A stretch of DNA of 64,000 bases from an uncultured Alphaproteobacteria bacterium (GCA_902615625.1 CACMPM010000006.1:10173-74172); one strand, 5' to 3'. Numbered from the stretch's first letter, positions 2,467 to 12,955 are shown. The notes: generated by a model from the letters alone, not told the origin. A program made the numbers and translations.

Positions 2467-2574
2467 ATTTTTTATGCTTCATAAGTAAGTATTTTTCTTA
2501 AAATTTCAAAATATTAATGGTTTAGTTATATTTTCTTACTATCATGGAAGTTTGTAAAATGTTGATAAAAAGTG

Positions 2575-2617: not shown

Positions 2618-2660
2618 TAAAAATCTTGAATTTTAAATAGATAGATATTACTCTTAATAA

Positions 2661-2796
2661 GCCGGATAATACTCGTTTCTTAGCTTCGGAGGAACGCCAA
2701 GAATTTTAATTATCTTACCCGCCGTTTGATAATTAGTTGAGTTTCTTATTCTAGAGAGGTGTCTGCCAAGGTACAAACTAGTTTTAGAGTCCGGCC
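2661..2796 (+). ncRNA. Candidate structured RNA of unknown family (G/C-enriched island in an AT-rich spacer)
   Basis: Hand fold. The closing helix is GCCGG(2661-65)/CCGGC(2791-95) plus ACUC(2671-74)/GAGU(2787-90). One hairpin, CGUUUC/GGAACG, carries a C(UUCG)G tetraloop at 2684-89. A 9-bp hairpin (2706-14/2728-36) presents a C-rich 13-nt loop. G-U pairs and the UUCG loop favour the + strand. No family match was recognised by eye. Confidence 0.3.
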
Positions 2797-3782
2797 TACT
2801 TTAAATTTTTATTAAAAAATTCCTCCATCTTTTTAGAATATACTTCTGGATATTTAAACATAGCATCTACATGATAAGAGTTTTCAACTAACCAAAACTC
2901 AGCATTAATTTTATTTTGATTTGTATAATCTTTAAAATAGTTAAAGTGTCTTGTTAAGATTCTTGTATCAGAATCGCCATGAGTAAAAAAATAGTATTGT
3001 TTATTTGATAATTTTTTAGCTGGAGATAATTCTCTTGGATCAGTTCCGGTTAAGATTCTTCCAGCTAAACTTACTACTGGCCCAAATTCTATAGTAAGAC
3101 CATATCTTGCTATTTCATCTTTTAAAATCATATTAAATTCAGCAAGTGAACTATCGGCCCACACTGCACGTATTTCCGGTTCAGCATGTGCTGCAAAAAT
3201 AGATGTGCTTGCTCCAAGAGATATTCCATGTAATCCAATGCTATTAGACTTGAAACCAATTTCCTTTAAAAAATCAAATGCACCAAGAATATCATTAAAT
3301 GACTTTAAACCTAAATCATCATAACTACTTACAGTATCACTTTGGCCGTAGTTTCTTAAATCTATCGTAAGAACATTAAATTTTTTATTAACTAAAAAAC
3401 TTGCAATAAGATTGGCTTCAGACTTACATTTACCGTTAGGACTTATACCATGAGTAACAATTATAATTGGTCTATTTGGAAAATAATTAAACAGCCATCC
3501 ATTAATCTTAATATCTGAGTCACGAGATTGAAAGTATACATCTTGCCATTCATCTAAATAATAATCTTTAAAGTTAAAATTTTCTCTTACTTTTTGTCGT
3601 GCAAGAATTGAGTATTCATGTGAATCAACTGTTGTACTCCATGTATTAGGAAGGGATCCTTCATGCAAACCACAAGTTGGATCTATTTTTAAAATTTGAA
3701 AAGCAACATAAAAACCTGCAGTAAAATAAACCACTATTAATAAAACTACTGTACTGACTAAAAATCTGATTATGTATTTCAT
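2796..3782 (-). CDS. Membrane-anchored alpha/beta-fold hydrolase
   Basis: N-terminal TM helix. Nucleophile elbow HGISLGAS (GxSxG), with later HGDSD and NSYHVD consistent with a Ser-Asp-His triad. I prefer ATG at 3782 (1-nt TGATG overlap with the zapE stop) over the TTG at 3785 used by the track. Confidence 0.75.
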   Translation of the reverse strand: MKYIIRFLVSTVVLLIVVYFTAGFYVAFQILKIDPTCGLHEGSLPNTWSTTVDSHEYSILARQKVRENFNFKDYYLDEWQDVYFQSRDSDIKINGWLFNYFPNRPIIIVTHGISPNGKCKSEANLIASFLVNKKFNVLTIDLRNYGQSDTVSSYDDLGLKSFNDILGAFDFLKEIGFKSNSIGLHGISLGASTSIFAAHAEPEIRAVWADSSLAEFNMILKDEIARYGLTIEFGPVVSLAGRILTGTDPRELSPAKKLSNKQYYFFTHGDSDTRILTRHFNYFKDYTNQNKINAEFWLVENSYHVDAMFKYPEVYSKKMEEFFNKNLK

Positions 3783-4816
3783 CAATCTGGTTTTACTATA
3801 GTCATTTCATATAATCTGCTAGCAGTTCTTTTAAATTCTTCCGCTAGAGTATTTATATTATTTAATGAATTTATAGGTTTTGATGCTAAAATTACAATTG
3901 AACAATTATTTTCATATAACATATCGATTAATCCAATAAATCTTCTGCACGAATCTTTTTTTTGATTATCAAATTCAGGAACATTTTTTAAAAATAACAA
4001 CTTAAATTTATCTGCAATACTTTTATAATCTTCATTACCAAAATTTACTTCACAAAGATTTTCAAAATTTATCATCATTAGATTTGATGTGCATTTATCA
4101 AACTCTAGTTCACGACTTTTAGATTTTATTTTTACAGTTGTTAAATGTGAGGGATCAACAAAGCGATTAAATAATTTTTCAAATTCATTTGACGTTTCAG
4201 TTGTTATAGGTGTGAAATATGTTTTTGATTGATTTAATGTTTGTCGGCGAAAATCTGTTTTAATACTAATATCATAAAGGAAGAAATTTTCTTTAATTAA
4301 ATCAATAAATGGTAGAAAATCGTTTCTCTGCAAACCATCTTTATATAAATCATCTGGATGAAAATTTGATGAAAGTAATATAAATATTTTATACTTTGAA
4401 AAATAATTAAATATTTTTTTAATGATCAATGCGTCAACAATATTAAAAATATGTAACTCATCAATAAATATTATTTTGAAATCTCTACTTAAATTCTTGA
4501 CATAATTTTCAATTGCAAGTTCTTTATTATCTGAGTTTTTTACTTGATCATGAATTTCATTCATCAAGTTATTAAAATGAATTTTTTTTCCAATTTTGCT
4601 ATTTTGATAAAACAAATTTAATAAAAATGTTTTTCCCGTTCCTACTTGACCATAAAGATAAATTCCTTCAAAAATTTTATCCTTAAAAAAAAGTTTAGTT
4701 TTACTATAAGAAGACCATACATTATTAGCTTGTTTTAAAAATTTAATTTGATCAACATTCTTTCTAATAAAATTATTTTCTACAAAACTATTGTACTGGT
4801 CGATAACATTAAACAT
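3782..4816 (-). CDS. zapE: AFG1-family ATPase (ZapE-like)
   Basis: 344 aa. Walker A is GQVGTGKTFL and Walker B-like is IIFIDELH. Overall AFG1/ZapE architecture. Confidence 0.85.
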   Translation of the reverse strand: MFNVIDQYNSFVENNFIRKNVDQIKFLKQANNVWSSYSKTKLFFKDKIFEGIYLYGQVGTGKTFLLNLFYQNSKIGKKIHFNNLMNEIHDQVKNSDNKELAIENYVKNLSRDFKIIFIDELHIFNIVDALIIKKIFNYFSKYKIFILLSSNFHPDDLYKDGLQRNDFLPFIDLIKENFFLYDISIKTDFRRQTLNQSKTYFTPITTETSNEFEKLFNRFVDPSHLTTVKIKSKSRELEFDKCTSNLMMINFENLCEVNFGNEDYKSIADKFKLLFLKNVPEFDNQKKDSCRRFIGLIDMLYENNCSIVILASKPINSLNNINTLAEEFKRTASRLYEMTIVKPD

Positions 4817-12880: not shown

Positions 12881-12955
12881 GGTCTCGTGGTGAAATGGAT
12901 ATCACACGTGTCTTCGGAACATGGATTTGGGGTTCGAGTCCCTACGAGACCGCCA
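12881..12955 (+). tRNA. tRNA-Arg (anticodon UCG), CCA encoded
   Basis: Hand-folded cloverleaf. Acceptor is GGTCTCG/CGAGACC, D arm GTGA/TCAC, anticodon stem CGTGT/ACATG with loop CTTCGGA (U33, anticodon TCG). T arm is TGGGG/CCCTA with loop TTCGAGT, followed by discriminator G plus CCA. It ends 1 nt before the asd stop codon. Confidence 0.9.

Follow-up and report, generated by a model that had tools for sequence, protein, structure and literature searches.

The DNA that we analysed, hereafter the window, is a 64-kb (64,000-nucleotide) stretch from an uncultured alphaproteobacterium. On its minus strand lie sdhC (2086-2466), followed by sdhD and sdhA, and an alpha/beta-hydrolase ORF (2796-3785). 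Between the sdhC start (2466) and the hydrolase stop (2796-98), the spacer measures 330 nt, as the earlier note had estimated. Within it, the candidate RNA gene that we describe here, hereafter the sdhC RNA, occupies 2661-2795 of the plus strand, about 135 nt measured between the outermost bases of its closing helix P1, with a predicted start at A2660 or G2661. It is divergent from sdhC, running away from sdhCDAB, and convergent with the hydrolase gene, whose stop codon abuts P1.

At the level of base composition, the region had been described as a G/C-enriched island, and the values agreed: over the island, 100-nt windows had 36-38% G+C, and the RNA alone had about 41%, compared with 19-21% in the adjoining spacer and 29% in the whole window. 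The listed sdhC ORF begins with MKKMTDNRPL, and many relatives begin at the methionine of MTDNRPLSPH; the true sdhC start may be the second ATG (2455-2457), which would lengthen the spacer by 9 nt. Nearly all genes in 1-20833 of the window are on the minus strand, and the local GC skew across the window just tracks gene strand.

To look at conservation, we used the SdhC protein as anchor and obtained 77 loci from single-cell and metagenome-assembled genomes, labelled HIMB59, MarineAlpha5, Pelagibacterales, or plain 'uncultured Alphaproteobacteria'. With nhmmer, the RNA element was detected in 74 of these loci, in every case on the strand opposite to sdhC and 190-230 nt upstream of it. The other three are contigs that start inside sdhC; thus, all the loci with upstream sequence (74/74) carry the element. 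It was present as a single copy per locus, and also in the window. Loci with SdhC only 68-75% identical still had a near-identical RNA element. The island is better conserved than the adjoining SdhC, and therefore a stronger constraint acts on this non-coding sequence. Three blocks were invariant in the protein-anchored set: UUUCUUWGCUUCGGAGGAACG, CCCGCCG, and GUGUCUGCCAAGGU.

We also searched metagenomes with a pattern built from the three invariant blocks, which matched at least 120 marine metagenome contigs and none of the viral contigs. Among the metagenome contigs listed with enough flank, sdhC was 200-260 nt away and divergent in every one, and among those listed SdhC identity went down to 34-42%. 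Since the search pattern used the same blocks, it partly imposes their invariance on the metagenome contigs; this invariance counts as independent evidence only in the 74 protein-anchored loci. The RNA gene adjoins the sdh operon in many marine HIMB59/SAR11-like bacteria.

On its 3′ side, the neighbour of the RNA is usually the convergent hydrolase gene, and in several loci an AFG1-type ATPase gene, a UDG-like gene, or others take this place; the sdhC side is constant while the gene on the 3′ side changes between loci. Several lineages lack the hydrolase gene, which separates the RNA from the AFG1-type ATPase gene, or have it replaced, with the RNA-sdhC pair intact (L060, 3252-3649; L106, L171, L186, L113, L146, L196, and L197). 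In L113 and L146, at least 0.5 kb past the RNA contains no ORF of 70 aa or more. Two protein-homology searches aimed at cultured strains retrieved uncultured relatives only; one of these searches, with the most distant SdhC type as query, yielded a relative labelled MarineAlpha5_Bin8. As judged from these labels, the distribution fits HIMB59/AEGEAN-169-like lineages rather than Pelagibacter ubique or HIMB5.

For the structural analysis, we aligned 114 non-redundant sequences with MAFFT only (A1), built a covariance model from them (R1), and used it to re-align 90 sequences with <96% mutual identity (A2); A1 agreed with A2 on the structure. R1 matched the window at 2659-2797 on the plus strand with 127.8 bits (E = 1e-33), the sole real match in the window. 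Standard pairs filled 92.6% of the cells in A2, against 28-44% when the partners were slid by 1-3 columns, and none of 500 shuffles of A2 matched any of the observed pairing measures. The earlier note had proposed to align the homologous spacer and test it for covariation, and this returned a conserved element with compensatory double changes at 21 pairs (A2). An element more conserved than SdhC and with such strong covariation is therefore far beyond chance.

The comparative analysis gave a double three-way junction with helices P1 to P5a as the consensus. P1 pairs GCCGGA (2661-2666) with UCCGGC (2790-2795) and has 8-10 bp in relatives. The closing helix drawn in the earlier note on the terminal inverted repeat GCCGG (2661-65)/CCGGC (2791-95) was confirmed as P1 by swaps between C-G and U-A (64 vs. 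19 sequences); its extension pairs alternate between A-U and U-A (34/26) and among G-C, A-U, and U-A. P2 (ACUC 2671-2674/GAGU 2739-2742) encloses P3 and P4 at the first three-way junction. All three P2 core pairs were doubly changed (CG 74, UA 11, AU 2; UA 69, CG 12, AU 3; CG 65, UG 8, AU 6, UA 4), and relatives show, for example, AACCU/AGGUU and AAUAAUAU/AUAUUAUU pairings. The same ACUC (2671-74) had been stacked on the closing helix by pairing with GAGU (2787-90); both sequences are present, but CUC 2672-74 pairs with the internal GAG 2739-41 instead.

P3 (UUCU 2677-80/AGAA 2700-03) was 98.3% paired, and P3a joins GCUUC (2683-87) to GAA (2692-94) and GC (2696-97), with a GGAG loop (2688-91) and C2695 bulged. 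P3 and P3a (2677-2703) constitute invariant block 1: P3 changes only from U-A to U-G (28, 16, and 6 sequences), consistent with the plus strand, and P3a presents no variation at all. A hairpin of CGUUUC (2674-79) and GGAACG (2691-96) capped by a C(UUCG)G tetraloop (2684-89) had been suggested here, and it has to be redrawn, with the UUCG segment as part of the GCUUC/GAA-GC hairpin and its GGAG loop.

The 9-bp hairpin seen by eye (2706-14/2728-36, loop UUACCCGCCGUUU) stood as P4 (2706-2736), with 10 of its 11 pairs doubly changed. In its apical part, A2717-U2725 and C2718-G2724 close the invariant loop CCGCC (2719-23), and the U-U mismatches 2715/2727 and 2716/2726 are A-U and U-A in other clades. 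The remaining hairpin of the earlier note, AGUUU (2740-44)/AAACU (2775-79), was superseded, as 2743-2789 makes one long arm, the P5 arm, with invariant block 3. The arm has four parts: P5-lower (UUCU 2743-46/AGAG 2786-89); P5 (CUAG 2751-54/CUAG 2778-81), 97.8% paired and with A-U to G-U and U-A to U-G changes; an internal loop (AGAG 2755-58/AAA 2775-77) whose 3′ side is variable; and P5a (GUGUCU 2759-64/AGGUAC 2769-74) with the loop GCCA (2765-68), invariant save U-A to U-G in 19 sequences. P5-lower was tested separately by duplex energy because its register differs between clades: cognate duplexes had a mean of -2.5 kcal/mol, non-cognate ones -1.5, and shuffled partners -1.2. The compensatory changes were located in P1, P2, and P4, and P3, P5, and P5a vary solely by U-A to U-G or A-U to G-U. 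As plain sequence, every feature listed in the earlier note is present with coordinates within 1 nt, including the two copies of GCCAAG (2696-2701 and 2765-70).

About 40 positions of the RNA are invariant. In both three-way junctions, the strands differ among members in sequence as well as in length, and the conservation sits in the apical hairpins; no convincing extra tertiary or pseudoknot pairs emerged from covariation. The unconstrained minimum-energy fold equals the consensus in many members (e.g., L053, L055, and L196), and that of many members reproduces the whole P5 arm. The window copy departs from this: at its energy minimum, blocks 1 and 3 pair with each other in a rod-like fold, around 5 kcal/mol more stable than the consensus. 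We rejected this rod as the family fold, since it was favoured in only two of the 90 members and was on average 2 kcal/mol worse. Single-sequence folding was only mildly better than shuffles (z = -2.2 on the plus strand and -2.4 on the minus strand) and therefore decides neither structure nor strand.

The strand was settled by the wobble pairs: G-U or U-G occupied 432 helix cells (252 in variable pairs), and A-C or C-A only 22. This ratio inverts on the minus strand, and the RNA is therefore placed on the plus strand, antisense to both neighbours. Directly upstream, the promoter pattern TTGWWW-N17-TAnnnT-N6-7-P1 was present in 71 of 88 members, 70 of them with the 17-nt spacer, compared with 7/1760 random 50-mers from the same loci (0.4%). 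Its copy in the window consists of a predicted -35 element TTGAAT (2626..2631, plus strand) and a predicted -10 element TACTCT (2649..2654, plus strand), the latter of the form TAnnnT and 6 nt before the first P1 base. We recognised this promoter through the alignment of relatives; a generic promoter scan missed the -10 element because it requires at least 4/6 matches per hexamer.

At the other end, P1 runs directly into a U-tract in 78/90 members, with at least 5 T among the first 7 nt. The window tail (2796..2812, plus strand; CUACUUUAAAUUUUUAU) is degenerate because the reverse complement of the hydrolase stop TAG abuts P1, and a generic terminator scan of the window copy detected no terminator. 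Promoter and U-tract together bracket the fold exactly. The 432:22 asymmetry, the sigma-70-type promoter at P1, and the U-tract are in line with the earlier view of an independent plus-strand RNA, rather than a 5′ UTR of sdh. From these comparative data, we consider that 2661-2795 on the plus strand is very probably an independent structured RNA gene.

Regarding known RNA classes, Rfam 15 (4227 covariance models) at the gathering threshold retrieved only the tRNA at 12881 in the whole window, and ARAGORN only tRNA-Arg 12881-12955, with no tRNA or tmRNA at the RNA site. At E ≤ 10, scans of 2400-2900 in the window, 3600-3820 in L053, and 4260-4480 in L196 yielded noise at 11-16 bits (nse_sRNA, snoRNAs, lncRNAs, and Histone3). 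The earlier note had read the region as neither tRNA, tmRNA, nor SRP RNA, and both programs concurred; no Rfam family was assigned, even at E ≤ 10. We also discarded a small protein: the 40-aa ORF at 2654-2776 (minus strand) is not conserved, the longest open frame switches strand and frame between members, and the elements have lengths not divisible by 3.

Searching the literature for SAR11 small RNAs, sdhC, and 6S RNA gave no relevant results. The main texts and accessible supplements of Meyer et al. 2009 (PMC2704228) and Stav et al. 2019 (PMC6429828) contain neither 'sdh' nor the invariant-block strings, and 'sdh' does not appear in the main texts of PMC8632094 and PMC11109978. A HIMB59/AEGEAN-169-like distribution would explain why the SAR11 studies missed this RNA. 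On the model searches, the predicted RNA is an uncatalogued family outside Rfam.

Similar cases are the orphan structured RNA candidates of SAR11 from GC-rich intergenic regions, e.g., the SAR11_0636 element (PMC2704228) and HRC-1/HRC-2 (PMC6429828). Like the sdhC RNA, they are G/C-enriched islands within a spacer of unusual length in a very A/T-rich, streamlined marine alphaproteobacterium, with a multi-stem junction and highly conserved stems, probably separate transcription, and no assigned function. However, their sequence blocks and genomic context are different, and they come from P. ubique or HIMB5, whereas the sdhC RNA comes from HIMB59/MarineAlpha5-labelled genomes. New structured RNAs turn up regularly, and we regard the sdhC RNA as an orphan structured small RNA gene. 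It would be an uncatalogued family with unusually clean comparative support, ready for RNA family databases and genome annotation.

For the mode of action, we suggest the following. The sigma-70-type promoter TTGAAT-N17-TACTCT would start transcription at the first P1 base, and the transcript would end at the U-tract just after P1 in most relatives. In the consensus fold, two arms leave the three-way junction that P1 closes: P2 (arm A), which splits again into the hairpins P3/P3a and P4, and the long P5 hairpin (arm B). These would display the apical modules: the GCUUC-GGAG-GAACGC hairpin, the C-CCGCC-G loop, and the AGAR loop with the GUGUCU-GCCA-AGGUAC hairpin. The RNA could then act in trans as a scaffold showing sequence-specific binding sites, most likely for one or more proteins, forming a ribonucleoprotein or a sequestering RNA. 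The three modules are frozen, including their base pairs, on covarying helices and with variable junctions, from which we infer a protein-binding scaffold in trans and not a riboswitch. Frozen base pairs would fit sequence-specific recognition, because compensatory swaps would satisfy structure alone. No known protein-binding motif was recognised by eye in the RNA. We propose a trans-acting scaffold with protein partner(s) tentatively, with somewhat under an even chance of being right, and we consider the explanation as a whole, an independent structured RNA gene working as a scaffold in trans, moderately probable.

Independent genes of the abundant type with their own promoter and terminator, and with invariant hairpin modules on variable helices, are also seen in CsrB/RsmZ, 6S RNA, and Y RNA. 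The sdhC RNA also has a GGA in a hairpin loop (GGAG), but in one hairpin, not many. It lacks a rod-and-bubble shape and a tRNA-like domain, csrA and rsr are not found nearby, and the Rfam models for all of these families failed to match it. The resemblance to protein-sequestering or scaffold RNAs is a functional analogy only.

The sdhC linkage survives the change of the other neighbour and hints at a common control region or a coupling to complex II. Together with the common divergent promoter region, it suggests co-regulation with respiratory complex II. However, this hint is weak and the linkage possibly passive, because gene order is generally stable in these streamlined genomes.

The sdhC RNA could also be a base-pairing small RNA with the C-rich P4 loop (CCCGCC) or another invariant block as seed, which we find unlikely, although it is the main alternative. 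An independent predicted transcript with a U-tail and an invariant apical loop CCGCC atop a covarying stem agree with such a role, and C-rich loops act as seeds in several alphaproteobacterial small RNAs. The AbcR and CcsR 'cuckoo' families are alike in being small independent transcripts (predicted here) with a C-rich apical loop and a U-tail. However, they carry CUCCCA or CCUCCUCCC anti-SD motifs where the sdhC RNA has CCGCC in its loop, and the sdhC RNA is far more structured, without an Rfam match and without a complementary initiation region in the window. The earlier note took the C-rich loop as typical of RNAs that pair with SD regions, and we saw no support for this in the window: CCCGCC is not an anti-SD sequence and is not complementary to a GGAGG-type ribosome-binding site. 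Outside the element, GGCGGG/CGGCGG occurs only three times in the 64 kb and never near a start codon. Each loop was also compared to the initiation regions of ORFs of at least 100 aa in the 64-kb window, a few percent of the genome, and the duplex scores were no better than those of shuffled loops. Besides, the RNA is almost wholly helical, and its invariant blocks of 15-24 nt, paired bases included, exceed typical seeds.

The other possible function would be ligand sensing, either riboswitch-like, with P1 stabilised beside the U-tract and a choice between termination and antisense read-through into the convergent gene, or as a ligand-gated small RNA. We judge it improbable. Its basis would be the complex multi-junction fold with ~40 invariant positions, the U-tract immediately 3′ of P1, and the alternative pairing of blocks 1 and 3 that is the minimum-energy fold of the window copy. 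Nonetheless, that fold is preferred in only 2/90 members (mean 2 kcal/mol worse), and no co-directional gene was found within ~1 kb downstream at any locus examined. Any gene close to the RNA 3′ end is convergent, with none called for >0.5 kb in L113 and L146, and the convergent gene differs between loci. Moreover, the strands of both junctions are variable, unlike known aptamer pockets. Among three-way-junction aptamers, purine riboswitches and single glycine aptamers also have a closing helix and two hairpin arms with invariant loops, and in the sdhC RNA a loop-loop contact is conceivable between GGAGG and CCGCC, although with a central A-G mismatch. They differ from the sdhC RNA in its unconserved junction strands, the lack of a same-strand downstream gene, and the lack of an Rfam match.

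We consider it very improbable that the element belongs to a minus-strand transcript, be it as a long sdhCDAB 5′ leader or as the hydrolase 3′ UTR or terminator. In favour of this, the element adjoins the hydrolase stop codon, it precedes sdhC on that strand, and the minus strand also folds (z = -2.4). But the 432 G-U cells would turn into A-C mismatches, the one-sided changes are nearly all U-A to U-G on the plus strand, promoter and U-tail are both on the plus strand, the element is kept where the hydrolase gene is absent, and no terminator-like T-run follows it on the minus strand.

Housekeeping-level conservation, a single copy, and an own promoter could also point to a divergent housekeeping RNA (6S, SRP, or similar) that Rfam models missed in an A/T-rich lineage, and we give this just as little credence. 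6S RNA is a rod of ~150-200 nt in which a large central bubble separates the long closing stem from a terminal stem-loop. In bacterial SRP RNA, a GNRA tetraloop caps the helix 8 hairpin, whose symmetric and asymmetric internal loops are conserved. In three divergent members, neither RF00013 (6S RNA), the SRP models, nor any other Rfam model gave a match at E ≤ 10, and the fold is branched, neither a 6S rod with a central bubble nor an SRP single hairpin. We rejected 6S RNA on the two three-way junctions, the ~135-nt length, and the lack of an RF00013 match, and SRP RNA on the GCCA loop of the P5 arm, the variable 3′ side of its internal loop, and the lack of a model match.

A DNA-level element (a repeat or miniature transposon, or a replication origin or DnaA-controlled region) is scarcely credible despite the terminal inverted repeats GCCGG/CCGGC and a conserved DnaA-box-like motif 100-130 nt off, given the single copy in the window and each locus, the fixed position in all relatives, the wobble-type asymmetry that is an RNA signature, and a GC skew without an origin-like switch, with the same gene orientation on both sides.

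A DnaA-box-like 9-mer, TTATCAACA, is found at 2560..2568 on the minus strand, between the RNA gene and sdhC, and we mention it as context only. Of the 84 family loci, 58 have the motif TGTGGATA and another 13 have TGTTGATAA, 100-130 nt upstream from where the RNA starts; in the window alone, the frequency of the DnaA-box-like 9-mer is not above chance. TGTGGATA(A/G) is the complement of TTATCCACA, and some loci have 2-3 boxes in tandem. L053, L129, L130, L191, and others have a DnaA-like box at the equivalent position. A replication origin was discarded here, with no GC-skew switch and no divergence of gene orientation.

As a broader and rather doubtful extension, the sdhC RNA might be a sensing RNA, or a housekeeping ribonucleoprotein of a new class, specific to HIMB59/AEGEAN-169-type marine alphaproteobacteria and co-controlled with complex II through a common divergent promoter region that bears a DnaA box. 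If true, central energy metabolism, and possibly replication status, would be tied to an RNA regulator in highly streamlined ocean cells. Should the RNA be coupled to DnaA or to the expression of succinate dehydrogenase, respiratory control in these abundant marine bacteria would gain an RNA layer. Protein regulators and non-coding DNA are both very scarce in streamlined marine alphaproteobacteria, and an RNA that has ~40 invariant positions and its own promoter, and that keeps a constant position next to sdhCDAB, is therefore very likely to have an important role.

Nearer to sdhC, at ~2495-2520, there is a conserved A/T-rich block, GCAGAAATTCAAAAAAAA (RNA strand), present likewise in L053-type loci. 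Its core AAWTWCAAAA was found in 70/84 loci; 41/84 have CAGAAWTWCAAAA in full. This block, which reads TTGAAT on the sdhC strand, may be the -35 element of sdhCDAB. Finally, three direct copies of CCAAATTT(T)A are located at 2576-2620, with the DnaA-like box on one side and the RNA promoter on the other. As judged by eye, only close relatives of the window have these copies, which could be a protein-binding array.
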